Shown here: positions 19,611 to 64,000 of the stretch, in pieces
Numbering within the stretch: position 1 is the stretch's first letter
Layout of the letters: every line of letters starts with the position of its first letter
From: Octopus vulgaris
Taxonomy: Eukaryota
Length of the DNA stretch: 64,000 bases
Reading direction: 5' to 3'
NCBI GenBank assembly: GCA_951406725.2
Contig: OX597829.1
Location: 12,462,001 to 12,526,000 of the forward strand
Notes under the pieces: generated by a model
What the model saw: only the letters and a program-made list of their open reading frames with translations
Database searches by the model: none
What the model was told of the DNA's origin: nothing
Made by a program: the position numbers and the translations under genes

Positions 19611-20127
19611 CTGATCTTAACTGATCGGAAGTGTTATCATGTACATTGTTTTGTCTTGGTATAAAAGATGGGCTACAGCAAATATTCTGCTCAATACCAC
19701 AGATTTGCTTGTCAGTTGTTTGACCTTAACCAGTTGAGCATGTCCCGTAGTGGCTGACGATATGTGCATCTCTGATCACGAGCAGAAGTAGTGGGGGAGC
19801 ATTATAGCCATGTGTTGAGAGGGATTCTTTGGGGTTTGAATAATTCACCTCTGGAAACATGGGTGGTTCTTTCAACATACTTAAACAACCCTTATTCAGG
19901 GACCTTTTGAGCGGGATGGGCTACTCAACCTGAAGAAAATTCTACCTGGGCCCCACCTGCAAGGTCATGCGCTGTTTATCTTGATATGAGATCACCATGT
20001 CGCGCACATATGGTTGTGATGCATGTGCCTGGTGTACCCTTATCAGACGGTTAGTCATGATGGGTATATTGGGCTTCGTATATTTTACCCCAGTGTCACT
20101 TTGATGGCATGAACTGCTCTCTCACTC
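19611..20127 (+). mobile_element. (AAT)n-targeted ~550-nt non-coding retroposon, copy 1 (slightly 5'-truncated)
   Basis: Highly similar to 62300-62853. Flanked by (AAT)n on both sides; ends ctctcactc|aataat. Confidence 0.9.
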
Positions 20128-33589: not shown

Positions 33590-33772
33590 ACTGCACAAGG
33601 CCTGAAATTTTAGGGGAAAGGACCAGTGTTTTACTGGTACTTAATTTATCGACCCCGAAAGGATGAAATGCAAAGCTGACTTCTGGAATTTGAACTCAGA
33701 ATGAAACGATGGGCGACATATCGCTAAGCATTCCGTCCTGCGTGCTAACGATTTTGCCAGCTCACCACCTTA
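33590..33772 (-). mobile_element. SINE family 2
   Basis: ctggtacttaatttatcgaccccgaaaggatgaaa; ggaatttgaactcagaa; tgctaacgattttgccagctc. Confidence 0.8.
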
Positions 33773-33839
33773 AAAAAAAAATAATGATGATGATGAGGAG
33801 GAGGATGATAATAATAATCATATGCTAATATTGTTTGGG

Positions 33840-35741: not shown

Positions 35742-35950
35742 ACTCTAGGTACAACGCCTTGAAAATTTTTGGAAAATGGGGGCTGATCGATTATATGGAC
35801 ACCAGTGCATAACTCGTACATATTTCACCGACCTCGAAGAGATGAAAGACAAAGTAGACCTTGGTGGAATTTGAACTCTGAACGTTGCAGCAGACGAAGC
35901 ACCGCTAAGTACCTCCCGGTGTGCTAACGACTCTACCAGCTCGCCGCTTT
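35742..35950 (-). mobile_element. SINE family 2
   Basis: ggaatttgaactctgaacgtt; gtgctaacgactctaccagctcgcc; abuts (AAT)n. Confidence 0.8.
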
Positions 35951-36807: not shown

Positions 36808-37326
<519 letters not shown>

Positions 37327-42192: not shown

Positions 42193-42659
42193 ATTGTTTT
42201 GTCTTGGTATAAAAGATGGGCTACAGCAAATATTCTGCTCAACACCACAGAATTGCTTGTCAGTTGTTTGACCTTAACCAGTGGCTGACGATATGTGCAT
42301 CTCTGATCACGAGCAGAAGTAGTGGGGGAGCATCATAGCCATGTGTTGAGAGGGATTCTTTGGGGTTTGAATAATTCACCTCTGGAGACATGGGTGGGTT
42401 TTTCAACATCCTTAAACAACCCTTATTCAGGGACCGTTTGAGTGGGATGGGCTACTCAACCTGAAGAAAATTCTAACTGGGCCCCCACCTGCAAGATCTT
42501 GTGCTGTTTATTTTGATATGAGATCACCATGTCACGCACATATGTTTGGGATGCATGTACCTGGTGTACCCTTATCAGACGGGTAGTCATGATGGGTATC
42601 CTGGGCTTCGAATATTTTACCCCAGTGTCACTTTGATGGCATGCACTGCTCTCTCACTC
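42193..42659 (+). mobile_element. (AAT)n-targeted non-coding retroposon, copy 3
   Basis: Matches 62300-62853 from attgttttgtcttgg onward; ends ctctcactc|aataat. Confidence 0.92.
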
Positions 42660-42788: not shown

Positions 42789-42790
<2 letters not shown>

Positions 42791-44184
42791 TCAACACTTT
42801 AGACGTTCCAGTTATAAGTTACAGCTACAATATCCTTAACTGGACACTAAAGGAACTGACCAAAATAGATAGGAAAACAAGAAAAATAATGACAGGATCT
42901 AGGATGCATTACCCAAAATCTGACATAGAAAGGTTATATATACAACGTATAGATGGTGGTAGAGGCCTTATACAGCTGGAAAACTACTATAAAATAACCA
43001 CCATAGGACTGCAAATATAACTACTTCAGAAGGAAGGAAAACTGATACAAATAGTGGCAAAACACGAGCAAAACAAAAAACTGTTCTCAGTATTTAAGGA
43101 AGCTGACAAATACAAACAAGAAATCATACCACCTAACAAATATGAAGAAGAAGAAGAAGAAGAAGAAGAAGAAGAAGAAGAAGAAGAAGAAGAAGAAGAA
43201 GAAGAAGAAGAAGAAGAAGAAGAAGAAGAAGAAGAAGAAGAAGAAGACGAAGAAGAAGAAGAAGAAGAAATAACAAAAACTATAAAACAAATGAAATCCA
43301 AACTAAAAATAGAACAGCAACAATGGCAAGAAAATCCCCTTTATGGCAAATACTGGACTAAACTAAATGCAAAAGAAATAGACAAAGAAAAATCCCAACA
43401 ATGGTTTGAGAAGCTCAGGACTCAAAGCAGAGACAGAAGGATTTTTAATTGCAGCACAAGACCAAAGCCTCCCCACCAGAAATTACCAAAAACATGTAAT
43501 GAAAAGAAATATAACAACTGCAGAATATGTGGAGATAGACAAGAAACAATAAATCATATTATCTCTGGCTGCTCAGTCCTGGCTAAGGAGGAATATATTC
43601 ACAGACACGACAGAGTTGGGACCTATATACACTGGAAACTATGCCAACATTATGGAATAACAACAGAAAAAAGATGGTATAGGCACACCCCAGAAAAGGT
43701 CACAGAAAACGAGAAAGCAACCATACTCTGGGATATGCCAATACACACAGATAGAGAAATTAAGGCCAACAGACCAGATATAGTTGTCAGAGATCATGAA
43801 GAAAAAAATGTTTTCTAATTGATGTATCAATACCAGCAGATGACAACGTGTCTCTAAAAGAAATGGAGAAATTTTCAACATACAAAGACCTGGAAATAGA
43901 GGTAACCAGAATGTGGAATCTAAAAACAGAAACAATTCCTATCATAGTAGGTGCATTAGGCATGATAAAAAAATATTCAGACAAATACATAACAAAAACA
44001 CCAGGACTTAGAAACACATATAATATACAGAAAATTGCACTACTAGGCACTGCATACATCCTACGCAGAACACTTTCCATACAATAACCATCAGAGCATC
44101 ACGACAAATCACAGCACATACCCAAGGCACACAGAGCTGCGCTCGGTAGCGAAGTGAAAGCACGATATAAAAAATATACTACTG
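42789..44184 (+). mobile_element. R4/Dong lineage C, 5'-truncated, with in-frame (GAA)n expansion
   Basis: DGGRGL, CRICGDRQETINHIISGC, HRHD, ANRPDIVV, KYKDL; poly-Glu at 43144-43269. Confidence 0.93.
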
Positions 44185-44190
44185 ATGATG

Positions 44191-44397
<207 letters not shown>

Positions 44398-47300
44398 TCC
44401 TTCTCCGTATTTTATTCTCATTATTTCGAACTAATACAGGCAGAGTGAGCCTTGAAGAAAGGAAGAGGAAAAAAAAATGTTCGGAGATAAAACTATCAAC
44501 AAAAAAAATACAGACGAATATAGATCTGCTAGTCTTAAAAAGCTGCGCTATGAGCAATGCTTACATGTAAAGAACCCTAAACTGACAGATCCATCTCCTA
44601 ATATAAGAATGGATGCTCGTCATGCTTCAAGGTCAACAAATGAAACAATAAACCGCATTGGTCGTTGCGCGGATTACAAAAGACCACGTACCCGAAAATT
44701 GAACCAAAGTCTGATTGAAAAATCAGCTACTGGATCAAATCTTCCCGACACACAGGAACTTGACGTACCCCGCAACTGGAATATTCCAACAGATGGCCGT
44801 CCATGCTCATCACCAAATAATCAAAAGAAAAAGGAGAAATGGTCTAGGGAAGATAATAAAGAAGTTCTTGAGGCCTTCTACCATGCCATATATTTCCCCA
44901 CAGATAAATCTAGCACTGTACAAGCATACTTAAACTGGAGACAGAAACACCCTGAAGTAAGACCCTACATAGACAGTAACAAACTTGCCAACGTCAGAAG
45001 AAACATTATAAAAAAATTACTGACTGAAGTAGAGATTGATCAAGTTAGACAAGCAATATCGGATAAAATGAACGAAGCTGCAGCTAGAGAAGATAATACA
45101 GAGGAAATAATTATAGACCAGCCCAGGGCTGATAAAAACGAAGTGAGGATTGAAAGAGTTAGTATAAGTGATAGGCAAAGTGAAATACTTCCTGAACCAA
45201 TCATAAACACTAAGACAGATGAGCATCAAATAGATAAAGAAAGTCACACAACAGAACTACATGAGCTAAAAAGTCAAATCATGATTGAATGGCTGAAAAT
45301 TAAAGAAACCAGCATGGATGAACGTGATACACTTCCTAAAATCCGCAACTCTAACCAAAACATGAAAATAATTGGGAAAATCCGGCTTGCACTTAAGGAT
45401 ATAATTTCAGCTAATGATGTTGATATCACAAACCTCAACCACCTATACTATGCATCCGCGAAAATCTCAACGATCCTATGTGGTGTAAAGATTAGAAAAC
45501 GGCAACATTCCCACAAAAAGCCTTCTTGGCAAGAGCGTTTGCAACAACAAATTAACATATTTAGATCTGACATTGAATATTTGAAAAACCTTAAGGCTCA
45601 CAAGACTACCAAACCTACAAAAACCCAAAAATTACTGAAAAAATACAATATGAAAACTATACTTGATATTGATTCCACCATAGAAACCATCAAGCAAAAG
45701 GTATCTGCCAAAGCTGCCCGCATAGCGAGGTATGAAAAGCGTGTTAAATTTTTCAAGGACAACAACATGTTAAAAAATAACACCAAGAATTTTTACAGGA
45801 AGATAGGAAAAACAGCGTTTACTGCAAGGTCTGTAGCATGAAAAGAAGAAGTGCAGGGATTTTGGAATAAAATCTGGGCAGAAGAAAAAACACACAACGA
45901 AAAGGCACCCTGGATTGACAGAATATCTACAGAACTGGACCCCTTAAAGAGCAAAAGTGGGAGGGTGTCAAGGTAGAAGATATAAGATCTGCTCTCAGGA
46001 GGTCAAGCAAATGGAAGTCTCCAGGAAAGGATAAAATTCCGAACTTCTGGCTGAATGCCTTCCTAGAGAGCCATGAACTGCTAACAGAACTGTACAATGA
46101 TGTTTTGCAACACCCTAGTAGGATGCCTCCTTGGCTAGTTAATGGGTTAACATTCCTGCTTCCAAAAAGTGAAGAAACAAATGAACCAAAAAACTATAGA
46201 CCCATAACCTGCTTAACAACTATGTACAAAACACTAACATCTGTCCTGACGGAATATACCTATAGTTTTTTAACAGACAGCAGCATATTCCCCAATGAAC
46301 AGAAAGGATGTAAACGTGGATCCTACGGCTGTAAAGACCAACTACTCATCAATAAGATGATCTTAGAAGATTGTCACAAACGACACAAAAACTTATCAAT
46401 AGCCTGGATAGACTATAAAAAGGCTTTTGATAGCCTACCACATAGCTGGATTAGGAAATGCCTGGAAATGTATAAGATAGCACCTACTCTGCGAAACGTC
46501 TTGACCGTAAGTATGAGATCATGGAGAACCACACTAACTCTGAACAGTGACAATGAATCCCTAAATGCTGGTGATGTAAAAATTTCGTGTGGCATTTTCC
46601 AGGGTGACTCACTGTCACAACTCCTCTTTTGTTTATCCTTAATACCTCTCTCAAAGCTGCTCAATGACGCGCAGTACGGGTATAAAATGTTTGATAAAAA
46701 TATAAATCATCTCATTTACATGGATGATTTAAAGCTTTTTGCAAAAAATGACCAACAACTCAAGGGCTTACAAGCGATAGTCAAACAATTCAGTGACTAC
46801 ATCAGAATGCAATTCGGCCTCGATAAATGTGCAAAAGCTACCTTTATCAAAGGAAAAATGACAGAAACATCTAACGTTAACCAGCAGAATGTCATAAAAG
46901 AACTAGACCCAGCGGAGAGCTACAAGTACCTAGGGGTAATTGAAGGGAACGTAATAAGGCATTCAGAGATGAAGGAAAGGATTAGGAGAGAATGCTATCG
47001 AAGAGTTAGGGCAATACTCAAGACAGAGCTGAATGCAAGAAACAGAATCGAAGCGATCAATGCATTAGCCATACAAGTCGTGACTTACAGTTTCAATATT
47101 GTTAACTGGTCAATTACTGAAATATGTCAGCTCGACAGAAAAATAAGGAAACTGTTGACAATGCATAGAATGCACCACCCTAAGGCAGATACAGAACGAC
47201 TCTATCTGCCAAGAAAAGAGGGAGGCCGTGGTCTTTTGCAGCTGGCAATAACAATGAAGATTGCTACAATTGGCCTAGACACCTACCTGAAAAACTCTGA

Positions 47301-48444
47301 GGACTGGATGTTAAAACTTGTCTCAAAACATGAAAACAAGAAAGCATCATACTCAGTCACAAAACAGGCAAAGGAATATCTAAGTGAATTCCGAATACAA
47401 CCAATTTCGGAATTAGAGATAGATATACAAGAAACAAGCACAGAAAAAGCTAGGCGCATGAAAACCCGTGCCAAAACTGCGGCCTTAGATATTCTGAATA
47501 ATAAATGGCAAGAAAAACCTCTCTATGGCAAATACCCAAAGAGAGCGAATAATGCAGATATCGACAAAGCCCTGACCCATCAATGGCTAATGGCCTCTGG
47601 CTTAAAATCTGAAACAGAGGGGTTTATCATAGCAGCTCAAGATCAATGCCTACCAACAAGAAACTACCAGGTCAACATATTAAGGAACGGCAGTAGCCCA
47701 ACATGTCGTGTATGCTGACAACAAAATGAAACCATTGATCACGTTGTCTCCAAATGCAGTCTTCTAGCGCCTACAGAGTACCTCAATAGGCATGATAGAG
47801 CTGCACAATATTCACTGGGTAATGTGCAAAAACCTGGATTTGCCCCATGAAAAAAACTGGTGGAAACACAATCCACCTCCAATGCTTGAAAATGACCATA
47901 TCTCACTCCTCTGGAACTTCACCATTCAAACTGACAGGAAGATAGATGCAAATATGACTGTCCCAATCGATATAAACGTATCAGTCAAGACCTACCAAAA
48001 ACTGAGCAAATATAAAGATTTTGAAATAGAAATCAGCAAAATGTGGAAGCTGAAGACTAAAATAATACCTGTTGTCATAGGTGCCCTGGGAATGATAGCG
48101 AAAGGGACTGATTGCTACATAACTCAGATACCAGGAAACCTCAAAATGGCAGAAATTCAAAAGATAGTGCTCATATCCTACGCAAAATACTCTCTATGTA
48201 ATCCCAAGGTTTAAAACAAACTTTTTTTTTATTATTTTTATTTTATTTTTTATTTTTTATTTTTATTTTTTCATTTATTTATTTTTTTATTATGTATTAG
48301 ACATTCACTAGTACAACACCAAAAAAACCCCCCCAAAAAACCAACAAATATATGGCACAGAACTTCCAACCAGTTGGTCTCTTGAGGTCTGTGGGTGAGA
48401 CTTGGAGCCAACTTGTACAGACATAAAGCAAAAGTCAAACATAG
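44398..48444 (+). mobile_element. R4/Dong lineage B, near full-length (~4 kb), inactivated
   Basis: N-terminal ORF 44477-45841 (KWSREDNKEVLEAFY); RT 46105-47718 (YRPITCL, WIDYKKAFDS, GIFQGDSLS, YMDDLKL); CRVC..HVVSKC; RLE. Contains stops and frameshifts. (AAT)n on both sides. Confidence 0.96.
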
Positions 48445-48470: not shown

Positions 48471-51400
48471 TATAATTGTTACGGCAATGATGGCCGTAAC
48501 AATTGTAACGGCAATGATGGCCGTCTCTCCACGAGTCAATCAAACCTCAAAAATGATAACACTATCGTAGCACCAAAATGTTTTTGGAAACTAAAAAGAA
48601 AACTAAATCAGTATACCAAATCGCTTGTCCTATGGTTAATCTGGAAGTGCGTCCCCCTGGGAAGAGCCAGCCTGGGATCGAAAAGTCATCAACTGGCACA
48701 AACTCTTCTCCGAATACAGACATGGATGGTCACTTGAACGGGAAATTCCCCAACTCGAGCCCTCCAAGTTCACCACCACAGAAAAAAAATGTAAGCGGAA
48801 CAAATGGACCCGAGAAGAGTATAAAGAAGTAATATACGCTTATTACTATGCATTAGGTAGGCCATCTCAAGAGAGACACACCGCAAACTCTTACAGTTTA
48901 TGGAAAACACGGAATCAAGACAGTAGGCCCTATTTGGACGAGAACAAATTGGCAAATGTGAGGAGGGATATCCTTAGAAATAACAGACTCACAGACAGTG
49001 AAATAAGCGCGATCAAGCACGCAACGGAAATGAAATAAATATAAGACACAAAGGAAATGAAGAATCAGATGAACAGTATAGCCTGCCACGAGGCTTAATT
49101 GAAAGACTGCTATCTGACCAAAGTACGCAAAGGCCTGAAGATACAAGAAATTCTATTGAACCTGTTAAAGATAGCCAGGAAAAGATAAAACAACAGTAAC
49201 TGAAGATCTCGCATTTGCTGAAGAACACAGAGAGTCTATGGCAGAAATGAGGCAGAAAATCCTGAATACACTTGAAGTTGTAAGACATACAAGTATGAAT
49301 GATAGTGAACCACTTCATAAACTCTCAAATACAAACCAAAATAAAAAACAAATCCAAATTGGCAACTATGTAACAAATGAAATAATACAAGAATTAAAAC
49401 CTGATTTTACTGAGTTAAATGAAATTATTTACGCTTTTACTAAGGCAATTGAAACCAGCTGTATGCCCCCGAAAAAAGAAAGAAAACCAAACCTGGGAAG
49501 AAATCAAACCCGGAGAAGTAAAATTGAAAAAGAGATTGAATTTATGAGAGGGGAAATATCAATATTAAATGAACTAATATGTGGAAATGATGTAAGATCC
49601 AGAACAGGAAGAAAGATGAAGAGAAAATTTGGATCCTCACCAAGAGAAGAACTGATATCAATAAAAGAAACGCTAAAACAAAAGGTCCAAGCAAAAGCCC
49701 AAAAATACGAAGATTTCAGAAGAGAAACAAGTTTTACAAGCAAAATAAGCTGTTCACATCCAATACCAAAAATTCTACAGAGAAATAGGGAAGGAGAAAG
49801 TAACCGTTAAAGACCCCCCTCGCATGGAAGAAGTTCAAAACTTTTGGAAAAGGATTTGGAGTGACAAGAAGACGTACAACATAAATGCAGACTGGATTAT
49901 ACAAACTGAAGGATCCTACCAAAATTTACAACAAGCATGGGAAGACATCACAATAGCAGACCTAAGAAACGCACTCACGAAGGCCCATAATTGGAAATCC
50001 CCGGTAAAGATAGGGTGCCGAATTTCTGGCACGCATCGCTCCCATGCGCACACGGTAAGCTAGTTCAGCTGCTCAATGGAATTATGAGAGACCCAAAGAA
50101 AACACCCGAATGGTTAGCAAGTGGTATTACTTACCTACTCCCAAAGAATAACGAAACCAACCTTCCAAAAAACTATCGGCCTATAACCTGTCTATCCACC
50201 ACGTATAAAATCCTAACATCTATCCTGGCGGAGAAAACATATACATTCATGAAGAAGAACGATATTTTCCCCATTGAACAACAAGGGTGCCACCGAGGCT
50301 CATATGGATGCAAAGATTAACTGCTAATTAATCGTATGATCCTTGAGAATTGTCACAACAAGCACAGAAATCTCAGCTCCGCATGGATTGACTATAAAAA
50401 GGCCTTCGACAGCATACCGCATCCATGGATCTTCAGATCGATGGACATCTTCAAAATTTCCCCTGTGATTTCAAGCTTCCTGAAGCACAATATGTCGTTG
50501 TGGAATACGAATCTCCTATTATACCACTCTAATGGAGTACTTGCCTCAGAAAATATAAACATCAACTGTGGAATTTTTCAAGGTGACTCACTTTCACCTT
50601 TAATATTCTGCATAGCCCTAATACCCCTTACAAGTGAATTAAACAGAACAGGGTTTTATATGGATGACTTGAAACTCTATGGTAAAGACAATAATGAACT
50701 TGAAGGCCTATTGCGCACTGTGAAAGCATTCAGCGATGACATCGGGATGGAGTTTGGACTTGAGAAGTGTGCCAAGGCCACTTTCCAGAAAGGGAAAGTG
50801 AAGATCACAAATTCAGTCGTGTTAGATGTTGACACAGTCATAAGATAGCTTGAGCAAGAACAAACATACAGATATTTAGGGATAAATGAAGGCTCTGGTA
50901 TTCAGCATGCAAGCATGAAAGAGAAGATCAAGAAGGAATGTTATAGGAGAGTTCGTGCAGTCCTGAAATCTGAACTAAATGCACGTAACAAGGTGTTAGC
51001 TATAAATTCCTTAGCAGTTCCAGTTGTTATTTATAGCTACAATGTGTTGAACTGGAATATGAGTGAAGTAAAGAATATAGATAGGAAAATACGCAAGCTG
51101 CTGAGTTGTAATAGGATGCACCACCCAAAGGCAGACGTAGATCGCCTTTACCTTCCCAGAGCCCAAGGAGGTCGAGGCCTGATCCAATTTGAACTAGCTT
51201 ACAAACAGCCACAATTGGACTGGTCAAATATCTTGAAATAACGAATGACTGGATGCTAAAGCTCGTGGAATATTACGAGAGACGAAAGAAGCTTCATTCT
51301 ATCATAAAGGAAAGCAAAAAATGTGCTATTGACCTCGTGCAGGATACCCAAACTGAACAACCTGAGGGAAGTACGGCAACTATTGTTGCAAAGAAGGTGA

Positions 51401-52378
51401 CAATAATGGCAACGAAAAAAGCGCCCGAGCAATTGGCTGATAGGTGGGAGGAGAAACCTCTGCACGGCAAATATGTGGCCCGCAGCAAACAAGCTGATGT
51501 TGACCAGAAGCGAGCCCATCAGTGGCTACGGAGCTCAGGGCTAAAAGCAGAGAGCGAAGGTTTCATCCTCGCTGCTCAAGATCAAAGCCTATTAACCCGG
51601 AACTACCAAGCCAATGTGATGAAAAATGGAGCAGACCCCAAATGCCGATTCTGCAACGACATGATTGAAACAGTGGACCAACTAATCTCTGGATGTAAAG
51701 TCTTAGCACCAGTGGAGTATAAATTAAAACATGACAGAGTTGGCCAATATCTATACTGGCTAATAAGTCGGCATTACAATATCAAAGCTGCCGACAAGTG
51801 GTATAATCACCACCCTGAAGCTGTAACTGAAGTTGAAAATTTAACGATTCTGTGGGACTTTCCAGTACATACAGACCGAACCATCAAGGCCAATAAACCA
51901 GATATTGTTGTGAAAGACCAAAACTATAAAGTTTGCTTATTGATCGACATGAGCATCCCCTGTGATCATAATATCTCGGAGAAAGAGTTTGACAAGCTCA
52001 GAAAATATAAAGACCTACTCATTGAAATTGAGAAAATGTGGCATCTAGGAGCACTAGGAATGATCAAGAAGGGAACCGAAAATTATATGAGAATGATCCC
52101 TGGCTTACCATCCCTGCAAGAAGTGCAAACGACTGTCTTAACTGGTACATCACACGTATTTAGAAGAGCATTGTCGATGTGAGAACTATTACTATTACTG
52201 TTTATACCCATACCCTGTTCTGTTTAATTCACTTGTTTTAATTTAACTTAAAAAAAAAATGAGCGAACTATTGAGTTTAGTTTAATGGCCTACCAATGTA
52301 TACTATGAGTATCTTTGCCCTAGGAGTCGGGAAGACACCCGGCAAGAAATGGAAGCAAATTTGAAAGAAGAAAAAAAA
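48471..52378 (+). mobile_element. R4/Dong lineage A, near full-length (~3.9 kb), inactivated
   Basis: KWTREEYKEVIYAYY-like N-terminus; WKSPGKD; YRPITCL; WIDYKKAFDS; YMDDLKL; CRFC; KHDRV; ANKPDIVV..LIDMSIP..KYKDL. 3' UTR homologous to 35640-35718. Confidence 0.96.
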
Positions 52379-52380
52379 AT

Positions 52381-52913
52381 GCCCTGATGCAGTACCAGGC
52401 AGTGGCTCTCATGGCTTCTGATCTTAACTGATTGGAAGTGTTATCATGTACATTGTTTTGCCTTGGTATAAAAGATGGGCTACAGCAAATATTCTGCTCA
52501 AAACCACAGATTTGCGTGTCAGTTGTTTGACCGTAACCATTTGAGCGCGACCCTTAGTGGTTGACAATATGTGCATCTCTGATCACGAGCAGAAGTAGTG
52601 CGGGAGCATCATAGCCATGTTCTGAGAGGAATTCTTGGAGGTTTGGATAATTCATATATAGAAACATGGGTGTTTTACTCAACATCCTTAAACAAACCTT
52701 AGTCATGGACCTTTTCAGCGGAATGCGCTACTCAACCAGAAGGAAATTCTAACTGGGCTCCACCTGCAAGGTCATGTACTGTTTATCTTGATATGAGATG
52801 TTGCGCACATCTGCCCGGTGTACCCTTATCAGACAGGTAGTCATGATGGCTATACTAGGCTTCGTATATTTTACCCCAGGATCACTTTGATGGCATGCAC
52901 TGCTCTCTCATTC
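52381..52913 (+). mobile_element. (AAT)n-targeted non-coding retroposon, copy 4 (full-length 5' end)
   Basis: Starts gccctgatgcagtaccaggc directly after the lineage-A 3' end; ends before (AAT)n. Confidence 0.92.
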
Positions 52914-53064: not shown

Positions 53065-53071
<7 letters not shown>

Positions 53072-53532
53072 GATGGGCTACAGCAAATATTCTGCTCAAT
53101 ACCACAGATTTGCTTGTCAGTTGTTTGACCTTAACCAGTTGAGCATGTCCGTTAGTGGCTGACGATATGTGCATCTCTGATCACGAGCAGAATTAGTGGG
53201 GGAGTATCATAGCCATGTATTGAGAAGGATTCTTTGGGGTTTGAATAATTCACTTCTGGAAACATGGGTGTTTCGTTCAACGTCCTTAAACAACCCTTAT
53301 TCAGGGACCTTTTGAGCGGGATGGGTTACTCGATCTGAAGAAAATTCTAACTGGGCTCCACCTGCAAGGTCATGTGCTGTTTATCTTGATATGAGATCAC
53401 CATGTCGCGCACATATGGTTGTGATGCATGTACCTGGTGTACCCTTATCAGACGGGTAGTCATGATGGGTATTCTGGGCTTCGTATATTTTACCCCAGTG
53501 TCACTTTGATGGCATGCTCTGCTCGCTCACTC
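53065..53532 (+). mobile_element. (AAT)n-targeted non-coding retroposon, copy 5 (5'-truncated)
   Basis: Runs from aaagatgggctacagc to cactc|aataat. Confidence 0.92.
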
Positions 53533-53552
53533 AATAATAATAATAATAATAA

Positions 53553-53896
53553 CAATAACGTGTCTTTAAAAGAAATGGAGAAAGTTTCAAAATACAAAGA
53601 CCTGGAAATAGAGGTAACCAGAATGTGGAATCTAAAAACAGAAACAATTCCTATCATAGTAGGTGCATTAGGCATGATAAAAAAATATTCAGACAAATAC
53701 ATAACAAAAACACCAGGACTTACAAACACATATAACATACAGAAAATTGCACTACTAGGCGCTGCACACATCCTACGCAAAACACTTTCCATACAATAAC
53801 CATCAGAGCATCACAACAAATCACAGCACATACCCAAGGCACACAGAGCTGTGCTCGGTAGCGAAGTGAAAGCACGATATAAAAAATATACTACTG
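53553..53896 (+). mobile_element. R4/Dong lineage C 3' fragment
   Basis: VSLKEMEK.SKYKDLEIEVTRMWNL; 3' UTR as in 44090-44184; ends actactg|aataat. Confidence 0.92.
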
Positions 53897-54164: not shown

Positions 54165-54212
54165 CTGATGATGATGAAGAAAAAAAATGCATTCTAATTG
54201 AAGAAAATAATA

Positions 54213-54601
54213 ATGAAGAAAAAAAATGCATTCTAATTGATGTATCAATACCGGCAGATGACAACGTGTCTCTAAAAGAAATGGAGAAACTCTCAAAATA
54301 CAAAGACCTGGAAATAGAGGTAACTAGAATGTGGAACCTGAAAACAGAAACAATTCCTATCATAGTAGGTGCATTAGGCATGATAAAAAAATATTCAGAC
54401 AAATACATAACAAAAACACCAGGACTTTCAAACACATATAACATACAGAAAATTGCACTACTAGGCACTGCACACATCCTACGCAGAACACTTTCCATAC
54501 AATAACCATCAGAGCATCACAACAAATCACAGCACATACCCAAGGCACACAGAGCTGCGCTCGGTAGTGAAGTGAAAGCACGCTATAAAATAAAACTACT
54601 G
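54213..54601 (+). mobile_element. R4/Dong lineage C 3' fragment
   Basis: Same RLE C-terminus and 3' UTR; its 5' ~27 nt are duplicated at ~54174-54200. Confidence 0.92.
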
Positions 54602-54686: not shown

Positions 54687-54689
<3 letters not shown>

Positions 54690-54784
54690 CACATATCGTC
54701 AGCCACTAAAGACATGCACAATTTGTTAAAGTCAAACAACTGACAAGCAAATTTGTGGTATTGAGCAAAATATTTGCTGTAGCC
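54687..54784 (-). mobile_element. Inverted internal fragment of the (AAT)n-targeted non-coding retroposon (copy 6)
   Basis: Reverse complement of ggctacagcaaatatt...gtggctgacgatatgtgcat. Confidence 0.85.
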
Positions 54785-54789
54785 AAGAT

Positions 54790-57080
54790 GTTTTTTCAGA
54801 TTAGGTTATATTGAACTAATGCTCCGATGATAATTGTTTCCTTAGTTTGGGTTTCGATTTCAAGAGAAGTTTGAGGCACTTGAAATATGCAGTGGTGATC
54901 TTGTCTTTCATTTCTCTGTGCAAGATATTGTACAGCTCCAGGATCCCAAAGTACTTGTACCCATGAACATCCAGTCTTCCATGCTCTCTCCGTTTGGCAA
55001 TTCTATACCCATACAGTTTACTCTTTTACTCCGCTTCAAATTAAGCACCGCACAGTTCGAGATCACGAATTCCATCCATGTAACATTACTGCACATTTTC
55101 ACAGTCTCAACCAGCCTCTCCATTTCAGGCTCTGTTTTCGCGAACAGTTTTAAATCATTCATAAAGAGAAGGTGGTTGAGGCTAGGTTAGTTCTTTCTCA
55201 TAGTGCACGTTGATTTTACGTAGGACTACAGGAAGTGGGATCAAGGCTATAATAAATACCAGAGGTGAAGAAGAGTCGCATTGGAAGATACCCCTTATGA
55301 TTGTTACTTCGGCTAATTGCTGGTTGTTTCAGAAAAGACGTGTTTTCCAACTAGGCATAATGTTCTGAATACAACTAGACATACACGTTCTGAGCTATTC
55401 CACACATGTCGAGTGTTTCCAAAATCCACGAATGCAGCAATATGTCGTAAGCCTTTTTAAAGTCTATCCAGGCCATACAAAAGTTTTTGTTGGGATACCG
55501 TTTGCAGTTGTTCATTACATCCTTGTCTATCACAAGGTGGTCCTTTGTGCTCTTGGATCCTTTTCGGCATCCCTTTTGTTCTACTGGCAGAAGATTGTTT
55601 TCTGCAAGGAACGTATATATTTTCCCTGCGAGGGTACCTGTTAATAATTTCCATAGGGGGTTAAGACAAGAAATGGGTCAGTAATTGCCAACCTCATTGC
55701 TCTTTGACCGATCGTTCATCAACAATGTTGTTCTTCTCTTTACCATCCACTCCGGAACTGTAACGCTCTGTAGGCAATCGTCTAATTGCAACGCAATTCT
55801 CTAGTGTATTGGCCTAAACTACTTGAGCCAGTAGCCTTGAATTTCCTCTTGTCCTGCTGCTTTCCAGTTAGCCAGTTTTGAAACCTTTGCAATGAAATCT
55901 CCCTTTGTTATGCGCGCATTGTCCTGGCGTGGAGCTTCTGAGTGATGGAGTTCGGATCTCACAGGATGAATCCACTCAACTCTGTGGTTGTGCGAAACTT
56001 CTTGCCCCCTGTTGTTATTCCAAAATTCGCGTCCGTCTGCTTCGGGAGGTATATTATCTTCCTTGTTTCCTCCTAAGCTCTTCAAAAACTGCCTCTGGTT
56101 ATTTGAAAATAATCGGTTTTGCTGAAACAACTGCGATATGTGTTGCACCTTTAATATTTTAGCCCGCACACGTTGTTTTAGGGTTTCGATGACAGTTTTG
56201 AATCCTTTCTTTTCTATTTGGTATTTCGCATCAAGCTATTCCCTTGCACTTCCTTTTCCATTTTTCCATTGCCCTTTTGACCACTTTTCTATGCGGCTCA
56301 GATCAGCTTCAATTCTCCGCTTCCACGATGGTTCCTTCTGTCCGTCTACTTTTCTCTCTTTCTTTCCAACCAGTTGAACTTCTAAAATTGAAGCGGATCT
56401 GATCAACTCCTTTGTTTCCGTTAGATCTTTTGTCAGAATGTGTTTCAGAATCTCATCAACGTTTTGGGTCGCGCGTTTTACATTGTTACGGTCGAAGCTT
56501 CTTAGATTCACCGGCCTTGTCTCTGCTGTAGTAATTATTATATCTTCGAGTCTTTTCCTTAGGTTTCTCTGTCCCTTAGTCATATCCTCTCTTATTTTAG
56601 GATTTTCTACATTATATAAATTCACCTTGCCTACACATTCGCTGATCTTCATCTACATTATTCTACTCGAGATTCTCACCACTACAGAGGATTTTCCTGT
56701 TAGTGTGGAAGCCTTTATAATTGCAGTTATTTGATTTCATGCTGTTCTTTTTTCCTGTATTATACCTATTTGTTCACTGGGTGGAGAGGGTGTCAAACTT
56801 TGGTGTTTTTCGTTTCCGTATTATACATTTTGATCTTTTATGTTTACATATTTCATTAATATTCTTAATTTTTTTTCTGCAAATACACATATGCACCCGT
56901 CCCTCGCACTCCAATCGCACCCGGCCTGCCACTAGGCCACCCTGCTTTTCTACTGTTCCACTGTTCAAACCAGCCAGCCGAGGAGCTGCCACGTCGACAA
57001 ACCACCCCGACTGCCCGCCGTTCAGCCACCTTACTGCATCTTACCAATTCTTTATTTTCCCTCACCCCTCTCTATTAGCT
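54790..57080 (-). mobile_element. R4/Dong lineage E, N-terminus and RT, 3'-truncated, old
   Basis: ENKELVRC; KEPSWKRRIE; NWKAAG..IQGYWLK; RGIFQCDSSSPL; NHLLFMNDLKLF. Confidence 0.88.
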
Positions 57081-61697: not shown

Positions 61698-61904
61698 GAT
61701 TTCAAATTTTGGCATAAAGCCAGCAATTCCGAAGAGTGGGTAAAATCGATTATAATGACTCCAGTGCTTAACCTATAATTATTTTATCGACCCCGAAACG
61801 GATGTGAAGCAAAGTCGACCTCAGCGGAATTTGAACTTAGAACGTAAAGAGGAGCGAAATGCCACCAAGCATTTTCCCGACGTACTAAGTTATGTTAGCT
61901 CACC

Positions 61905-61905
<1 letters not shown>
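61698..61905 (-). mobile_element. SINE family 2
   Basis: ttcaaattttggca; ttttatcgaccccgaaa; aaagtcgacctcagcggaatttgaact. Confidence 0.8.
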
Positions 61906-62160: not shown

Positions 62161-62299
<139 letters not shown>

Positions 62300-62853
62300 C
62301 CCCTGATGCAGTACCAGGCACTGACTCTCGTGGCTTCTGATCTTAACTGATTGGAAGTGTTATCGTGTATATTGTTTTGTCTTGGTATAAATGATGGGCT
62401 ACAGCAAATATTCTGCTCAATACCACAGATTTGCTTGTCAGTTGTTTGACCTTAACCAGTTGAGCATGTCCGTTAGTGGCTGACGATATGTGCATCTCTG
62501 ATCACGAGCAGAAGTTGTGGGGGAGCATCATAGCCGTGTGTTGAGAGGGATTCTTTGGGGTTTGAATAATTCACCTCTAGAAACATGGGTGTTTCGTTCA
62601 ACATACTTAAACAACCCTTATTCAGGGACCTTTTGAGCGGGATGGGTTACTCGACCAGAAGAAAATTCTAACTGGGCCCCACCTGCAAGGTCATGTGCTG
62701 TTTATCTTGATATGAGATCACCATGTCGCGCACATATGGTTGTGATGCATGTGCCTAGTGTACCCTTATCAGACGGGTAGTCATGATGGGTATCCTGGGC
62801 TTCCTATATTTTACCCCAGTGTCACTTTGATGGCATGCAATACTCTCTCACTC
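62300..62853 (+). mobile_element. (AAT)n-targeted non-coding retroposon, copy 7 (full length, 554 nt)
   Basis: ccctgatgcagtaccaggc...ctctctcactc, with (AAT)n on both sides and the same 5' start as copy 4. Confidence 0.93.

Positions 62854-64000
<1,147 letters not shown>

Follow-up and report, generated by a model that had tools for sequence, protein, structure and literature searches.

Several described systems come close to the repeat reported here. EhSINE1 of Entamoeba histolytica, whose partner is EhLINE1, is likewise a non-coding element of ~550 nt that is mobilised by an RLE-LINE, as described in the accessible parts of two papers (PMC2996970, PMC1635306). The R2 SIDEs and R2/R1 hybrid SIDEs of Drosophila are also non-autonomous and site-specific, with a precise 5' end and without a Pol III head, and the same source, as far as it was available, describes R2-group enzymes as copying RNAs with their own 3' UTR and R2-group elements as requiring it (PMC3414825). 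Dong elements (R4 clade) of Bombyx mori, Anopheles and Biomphalaria target TAA repeats, as our element does (PMC3812793, in part); B. mori Dong has the same TAA| register, and it relies on an HDV-like ribozyme to process its 5' end (PMC3774820, in part). Octopus tRNA-SINEs (OR2; CORE, Deu) and Ceph-SINEs are abundant, short and tied to microsatellites as well (names from the available text of PMC4758252 and PMC8967140). In an octopus annotation, 893 SINE families are given as recently active but unclassified, next to 51 Dong-R4 families (PMC13282606); because of these many unclassified SINE families, the element is probably present, unnamed, in the automated octopus library.

The window, i.e., the whole 64,000-nt stretch of Octopus vulgaris DNA analysed, contains on its + strand a full-length copy of a 556-nt non-coding repeat (ATGCCC...CACTC) at 62298..62853, with its first three bases variant and 96.9% identity to the family majority over nt 4-556. 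The copy lies between two + strand target arrays, (AAT)21 at 62234..62296 and (AAT)35 at 62854..62958. Its head (nt 1-102, 62298..62399) is predicted to form a long hairpin closed by GCCC/GGGC, lacks an A/B box, and is the part tandemly duplicated at 5' junctions. The middle (nt 103-272, 62400..62569) is common to a 489-bp TAA/TTA-flanked MITE, whereas the 3' half (nt 273-556, 62570..62853) is predicted to pair with nt 219-270 and to form a long hairpin at 456-503. A sequence-only reading of the window had listed seven copies, and all are present at 88-97% identity to the family majority. Besides the copy above, these are 5'-truncated + strand copies at 19611..20127 (nt 40-556, in an AAT array), 36808..37179 (nt 166-555, following the 3' end of Dong A sequence), 42193..42659 (nt 74-556) and 53068..53532 (nt 92-556), an older full-length + strand copy (88%) at 52379..52913 that adjoins the poly-A end of Dong B, and an inverted fragment on the - strand at 54687..54784 (nt 100-198) after an AAT run. 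The common 3' end proposed for the six + strand copies was found as CTCTC(A/T)C(T)C followed by AATAAT, with the 36808 copy one base short. Two copies do reach the same 5' start, which is however ATGCCC and not (g)ccctg. The statement that all copies sit in (AAT)n in the Dong orientation applies less widely: the 52379 copy has the Dong poly-A end rather than an AAT run on its 5' side, and the Dong orientation holds for the six + strand copies but not for all seven, since the fragment at 54687 lies in opposite orientation to its own AAT run. The window also carries a Dong/R4 lineage A copy with RT and a broken ORF (44397..48444, +), which represents the candidate partner class, a lineage B copy (48472..52378, +), and the 3' part of lineage C (42790..44190, +, with more 3' pieces at ~53557-53896 and ~54210-54601). 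tRNA-headed SINE copies occur at the same arrays in ATT orientation (61745-61905, 33622-33822 and 35786-35950), and a piece of a more distant RT element lies on the minus strand at 54900-55899.

We then counted the element in the genome (2.8 Gb, 227 contigs). A 23-mer near its 3' end had 13,850 exact matches, which sets a lower bound of at least 13,850 copies, and its first 20 nt had 7,228, while the reversed-pattern controls gave 0 in both cases. A DNA search returned 4,269 candidates; among the 40 scored, 40 of 41 matches covered approximately the whole element at 95-100% identity. Seventy 10-kb stretches taken at round coordinates contained 12 3'-intact segments, of which three were 50-nt pieces in tandem. 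This extrapolates, with wide error, to roughly 36,000-48,000 copies. From the exact counts and the stretch sample, the total is likely 25,000-50,000 copies, or roughly 0.5% of the genome. Most copies differ from the majority by 1-12%, and some are up to 13-17% diverged. The absence of a meaningful ORF was confirmed: there was no ORF, and Pfam at E<=10 in six frames, with X at stops, gave no match to a coding relic in the element. Short, non-coding and dispersed in many copies (556 nt, >=13,850), the element is a SINE in the broad sense. A scan of metagenomes with the head motif gave 0 matches.

The junctions were examined genome-wide, as the sequence-only reading had proposed, and the 3' register seen in the window recurred: AATAAT directly followed 10,901 of 12,720 exact 3' ends (85.7%), and AATAA directly preceded 3,793 of 7,228 exact heads (52.5%), with 0 in the reversed-pattern controls for both. 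Thirty of 30 heads taken in genome order were preceded by an AAT or, rarely, AAG array; at L124, L125 and L134, element copies lie between (AAG)n and not (AAT)n. In a set of 128 distinct 3'-intact copies, whose loci were partly picked by similarity, an array-type 5' flank was found in 101 (70/80 full-length and 31/48 truncated). Many of the copies without such a flank are 5' duplications, fold-backs, internal deletions or ATT-side junctions, and in 17 of the 48 truncated copies the 5' flank is not an array. Given that (AAT)>=4 runs make up 0.68% of 700 kb sampled at round coordinates, the location of copies in AAT arrays with fixed junctions is far beyond chance. The element thus has the fixed 3' end, variable 5' truncation and simple-repeat tail of a SINE, together with the (TAA)n insertion in one orientation and register that characterises the Dong/R4 target class.

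The RT-bearing elements of the window come from lineages of which intact copies exist elsewhere, including many open frames of >1,200 aa. Intact relatives of the lineage B copy encode RT-CCHC-RLE proteins of 1,235 aa, and one natural copy carries YMDD, CCHC, RHD, PD..D and K..KY in such a protein; the solved structures nearest to it are R2 proteins (E 3.9e-28). We take the RT-CCHC-RLE layout and the TAA target to denote Dong/R4, on established knowledge and not on a tree with named Dong. The assignment also leans on what the available text of PMC3812793 and PMC1635306 gives for layout and target. Dong lineages A, C and E terminate as X followed by AATAAT, and full-length Dong A, B and C start as AATAA|GAGA.., the same register as element heads after AATAA. 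Median divergence was 2.8% for the element (n=59), 2.9% for Dong B (16), 2.1% for Dong C (18) and 4.9% for Dong A (8). The near-exclusive location at AAT with Dong junctions indicates that the element likely borrows the Dong enzyme, and we consider it probable that the element is a non-autonomous retroposon mobilised in trans by a Dong/R4 RT-RLE protein. Its ends, target, orientation, 5' duplications and the intact Dong ORFs of similar age are direct observations. To this extent the earlier proposal of a SINE-like parasite of a site-specific RLE retrotransposon has gained from junction counts, orientation, 5' duplications, ages and intact ORFs; a common tail was not found, and mobilisation in trans is what we infer.

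The 5' duplications occur in both element and Dong. The first 16-68 nt were tandemly duplicated in 7 of 63 element heads (5 loci) and in 2/9 Dong A, 1/3 Dong B and 1/2 Dong C copies, as against 0/65 in a control tRNA-SINE; note that the contrast is thin, as without L153, a locus fetched for its array, the element has 4 loci of ~60. At L153 (G000:C1:30148152-30149001), a full-length copy is preceded by ~13 tandem repeats of nt 1-68. Contigs of four runs contained joints reaching back 127-139 nt to the element start. Full-length Dong A, B and C copies with tandem duplications of 21-40 nt at the 5' end were seen at L357, L358, L157, L165 and L187. There are also fold-back or head-to-head insertions (L041, L175, L367 and window 54687-54784), in which an inverted element or Dong piece lies 5' of a copy and the arrays point outwards; the 54687..54784 fragment resembles the 5' fold-backs of L041 and L175. 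In the chimera L033, Dong C ORF sequence is joined directly to element nt 241-556, which may reflect a template jump or a deletion between neighbours.

We searched the element for the heads of known SINEs. ARAGORN found 0 tRNA in the element, and it has no A box, while the control tRNA-SINE has both A and B boxes; the claim of no clear A/B box therefore stands for the A box and needs qualification for the B box, of which there is a single weak match at nt 118. The element contains three T4 runs; these and the lack of boxes speak against a type 2 Pol III promoter. A tRNA-derived SINE (SINE2) was ruled out, as there is no tRNA-like head with A and B boxes. A 5S-derived head (SINE3) was rejected since 267 of 1,000 shuffles matched the 5S of the same genome as well as nt 1-130 did; the best 5S match anywhere in the element (nt 103-213) was equalled by 34 of 1,000 shuffles. 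A 5S rRNA gene cluster on both strands lies at G000:C4:35207565-35335000. Rfam at E<=10 gave chance matches only, with no 5S, SRP RNA, U snRNA or ribozyme, so that a 7SL- or snRNA-derived SINE was also rejected at this threshold, which very diverged relatives could escape. No Rfam ribozyme matched the element, nor the Dong B 5' end. An HDV-like descriptor found no ribozyme motif in the head, but equally missed both Dong B controls, and no hammerhead core was found at the element ends. A GGACGT..TGCTCT motif that probably forms a pseudoknot is common to Dong A and B, and is missed by both Rfam and the HDV descriptor. Self-comparison of the element showed no terminal inverted repeat, and the element itself was therefore rejected as a MITE or DNA transposon.

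The RNA is predicted to be structured. Folding of a natural copy gave z -3.99 (0/100 shuffles as good), and the majority sequence gave z -4.37 in sense and -0.18 in antisense (40 shuffles each). Single domains folded more weakly on their own (z -2.1 to +0.4; for the head, nt 1-102, z -2.1 with 8/150 shuffles as good), indicating that the signal is largely long-range. The confident predicted helices are 114-121/209-216, 219-228/546-555, 231-243/436-448 and 456-468/491-503. Non-CpG variants present in >=8% of 162 copies fell on 12 of 205 pair-keeping and 2 of 151 pair-breaking sites (p 0.025), a test that is partly circular because the structure was predicted from the majority sequence, and in which the copies are related. 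Rare changes were alike at the two kinds of sites (0.0166 vs 0.0176). These results are modest evidence that source copies are selected for the fold. Derivation from a structured RNA, as suggested by the sequence-only reading, is thus favoured by the predicted fold and by variants that keep pairing, whereas the search for a source RNA gave none.

The link with a MITE was absent from the sequence-only reading: nt 103-272 recur as the core of a DNA-transposon MITE (164/170, majority vs majority). This second family, traced from loose contig ends (1,274, 896 and 399 motif matches), is 489 bp long with TIRs, inner inverted arms of ~95 bp and 3-bp TAA/TTA duplications, and has >1,000 copies (loci L233-L282 and L306-L335, e.g., G000:C1:49319495-49322518). 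Its duplication type presumably places it in the PIF/Harbinger superfamily. A search for an autonomous parent gave 12 Harbinger-type DDE_Tnp_4 matches, and the 10 kb around ten of them contained no TIR pair but matches of 16-19 nt only. As for the direction of transfer, pairing of nt 217-272 with the element-only 3' half yielded a gain of -37.7 kcal/mol (shuffles -14.8 +/- 3.8, 0/150), as against 0.0 kcal/mol with the MITE arm. Because the pairing partner of this piece lies in the 3' half of the element itself, it is likely that the MITE took it, i.e., that an older member of the element lineage donated nt 103-272. The opposite direction, in which nt 103-272 passed from the MITE to the retroposon and made the latter a chimera with a DNA-transposon middle, concerns the origin only, and we regard it as rather unlikely. 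It would agree with the age of the MITE, whose copies (median 10.4% from the majority, 49 copies) are older than most present element copies (1-12%), and with L335 and L343, where the MITE left arm is joined to nt 273-556; however, the left TIR is missing from these two loci, which resemble products of template switching or recombination, and element copies diverged by up to 13-17% also exist. The pairing energies above speak against it too, as do two sites where the MITE has CA and TG and the element keeps CG. At L342, an element with a MITE-type junction was observed, and a further match, L341, looked unrelated; such mixed forms are rare.

The Dong ends were compared with the element. Alignment of 111 Dong 3' segments, covering the ends of ~15-20 lineages, showed no likeness (three exceptions merely run into an element copy), so that the reported lack of homology to Dong 3' UTRs was upheld in these comparisons. 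Nor did the 5' regions of Dong B (30 loci), A (30 loci) and C (3 loci), the three lineages whose 5' ends were sampled, match the element; among the ends sampled, neither its 5' nor its 3' end comes from a Dong partner as in SIDEs. A predicted hairpin (CC, 3-nt bulge, GG stem ... YU, C bulge, GG) recurs ~30-45 nt upstream of the AAT tail in Dong 3' UTRs that differ greatly in sequence (window 52320-52345, 48375-48410 and 44120-44150; L173 and L223), and is a candidate recognition signal for the RT. The motif was absent from the element, although the descriptor used recovers lineages C, H and B2 only. Element nt 546-556 contain ~9 nt complementary to the start of Dong B RNA (L157:1887-1897), a low-complexity match that may be due to chance. 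It is conceivable, though in our estimate unlikely, that the element is a classical stringent SINE or SIDE with a tail or head from a Dong lineage outside those sampled, recognised by Dong in the ordinary manner. The 51 Dong-R4 families in the octopus library, as given in the available part of PMC13282606, compared with the ~15-20 lineages whose 3' ends were sampled, leave room for such a lineage, and R2 SIDEs are built from partner ends according to the accessible text of PMC3414825. Against this, none of the 111 3' segments matched, and the contigs of four runs (80% likeness), which showed the MITE in 59 and 63 contigs, showed in the tail no upstream continuation with good support among the 18 loose ends listed, with 1,197 more beyond these.

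We also surveyed sequences ahead of AAT arrays in 1.06 Mb. Those that clustered were Dong ends, the element and reversed tRNA-SINE heads, and the only LINE ends among them were of Dong lineages; 58 of 241 flanks were singletons and unclassified. These arrays also host the abundant tRNA-SINEs, in the reverse (ATT) orientation. Dong is thus not alone in targeting arrays, and this tRNA-headed SINE points to a second microsatellite-linked system. Penelope-like insertions are known for tandem and fold-back 5' copies, as seen at L041, L175 and L153. These two observations, together with the Penelope-like families that the accessible part of PMC13282606 gives as recently active in the octopus library, are in line with other machinery, either Penelope-like or an APE-type LINE with an (AAT)n tail, Dong being a mere neighbour. 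We nevertheless hold this to be improbable, because no such element occurred among the clustered flanks of the 1.06 Mb (58 singletons unclassified), the register and 5' duplications fit Dong at both ends, and neither a hammerhead core at the ends nor an Rfam ribozyme match was found. Very improbable, and already largely refuted, is that the element is the long 3' UTR of a LINE in truncated copies: a fixed 3' end with variable 5' truncation would be expected of one, but 7,228 exact heads stand against 13,850 exact tails, this fixed 5' start argues against a longer LINE, and no sampled head ran on upstream into an ORF, the outcome that the sequence-only reading had set against itself, as 30/30 of them follow a triplet array.

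Under the preferred reading of mobilisation by Dong/R4, the Dong endonuclease would nick the ATT strand and prime on the element 3' end in target-primed reverse transcription. The template would be recognised through its folded 3' half and pairing of the AAU tail, rather than a tail copied from Dong, and repeated re-priming at the cDNA end would generate the 5' tandem duplications. The R2-group requirement for an own 3' UTR counts against this recognition of a foreign RNA. Regarding the source of the RNA, the least certain part of this reading, we tentatively favour an uncapped RNA released from read-through host transcripts by cleavage at the head hairpin, much as B. mori Dong uses its ribozyme; an internal promoter is an equally open possibility, and a single master gene seems rather doubtful. 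Several shared variants suggest several source copies. An extra 5' G is tied to the cap, as known from L1; G precedes 0 of 85 element heads, which fits an uncapped RNA end. The most far-reaching version, a Pol III-independent, self-processing structured RNA unrelated to tRNA, 5S, 7SL or its partner that hijacks a supposedly stringent site-specific RLE retrotransposon by shape alone and has attained tens of thousands of copies in AAT microsatellites, would be a new kind of SINE and is in our judgement rather unlikely.

No description of a Dong-dependent SINE was found in the open-licence literature, and subscription papers and Repbase Reports may bear on this. Four element motifs did not occur in the paper full texts searched or in 4 of the 8 supplements to PMC9115989. 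Known R2-group parasites are few, or are cut-down partners. If the preferred reading is true, insertion of a foreign 556-nt RNA at the Dong target tens of thousands of times would mean relaxed or structure-based template choice by an RLE enzyme, and the element would be a natural template for working out the requirements of R2/R4-type proteins, a matter of current interest for RNA-templated gene insertion. Furthermore, the known SINE heads would be joined by one of unassigned type, about half a percent of this genome would be accounted for, and a retroposon and a DNA-transposon MITE would be on record as having exchanged sequence.

EhSINE1 has ~400 copies, no sequence-specific target, internal repeats of 26-27 nt and a 3' end in common with EhLINE1. 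Unlike it, the element has >13,000 copies, an (AAT)n target and no common tail detected with Dong. SIDEs consist of the partner's 5' ribozyme and 3' UTR and are rare, whereas the element ends match no Dong end sampled. The octopus tRNA-derived SINEs, which further include OK and OR1, have tRNA heads with A/B boxes, and those found here are ATT-oriented and without 5' duplication. Tourist-like PIF/Harbinger MITEs, with which the 489-bp family has TIRs and 3-bp TAA/TTA duplications in common, differ in that the element has neither TIR nor TWA duplication and probably moves as an RNA copy. Dong itself is autonomous, with an ORF of ~1,200 aa and an HDV-like 5' ribozyme, while the element has no ORF and no recognised ribozyme; Dong and the element are alike, however, in their TAA| 5' register and in their 5' truncation.
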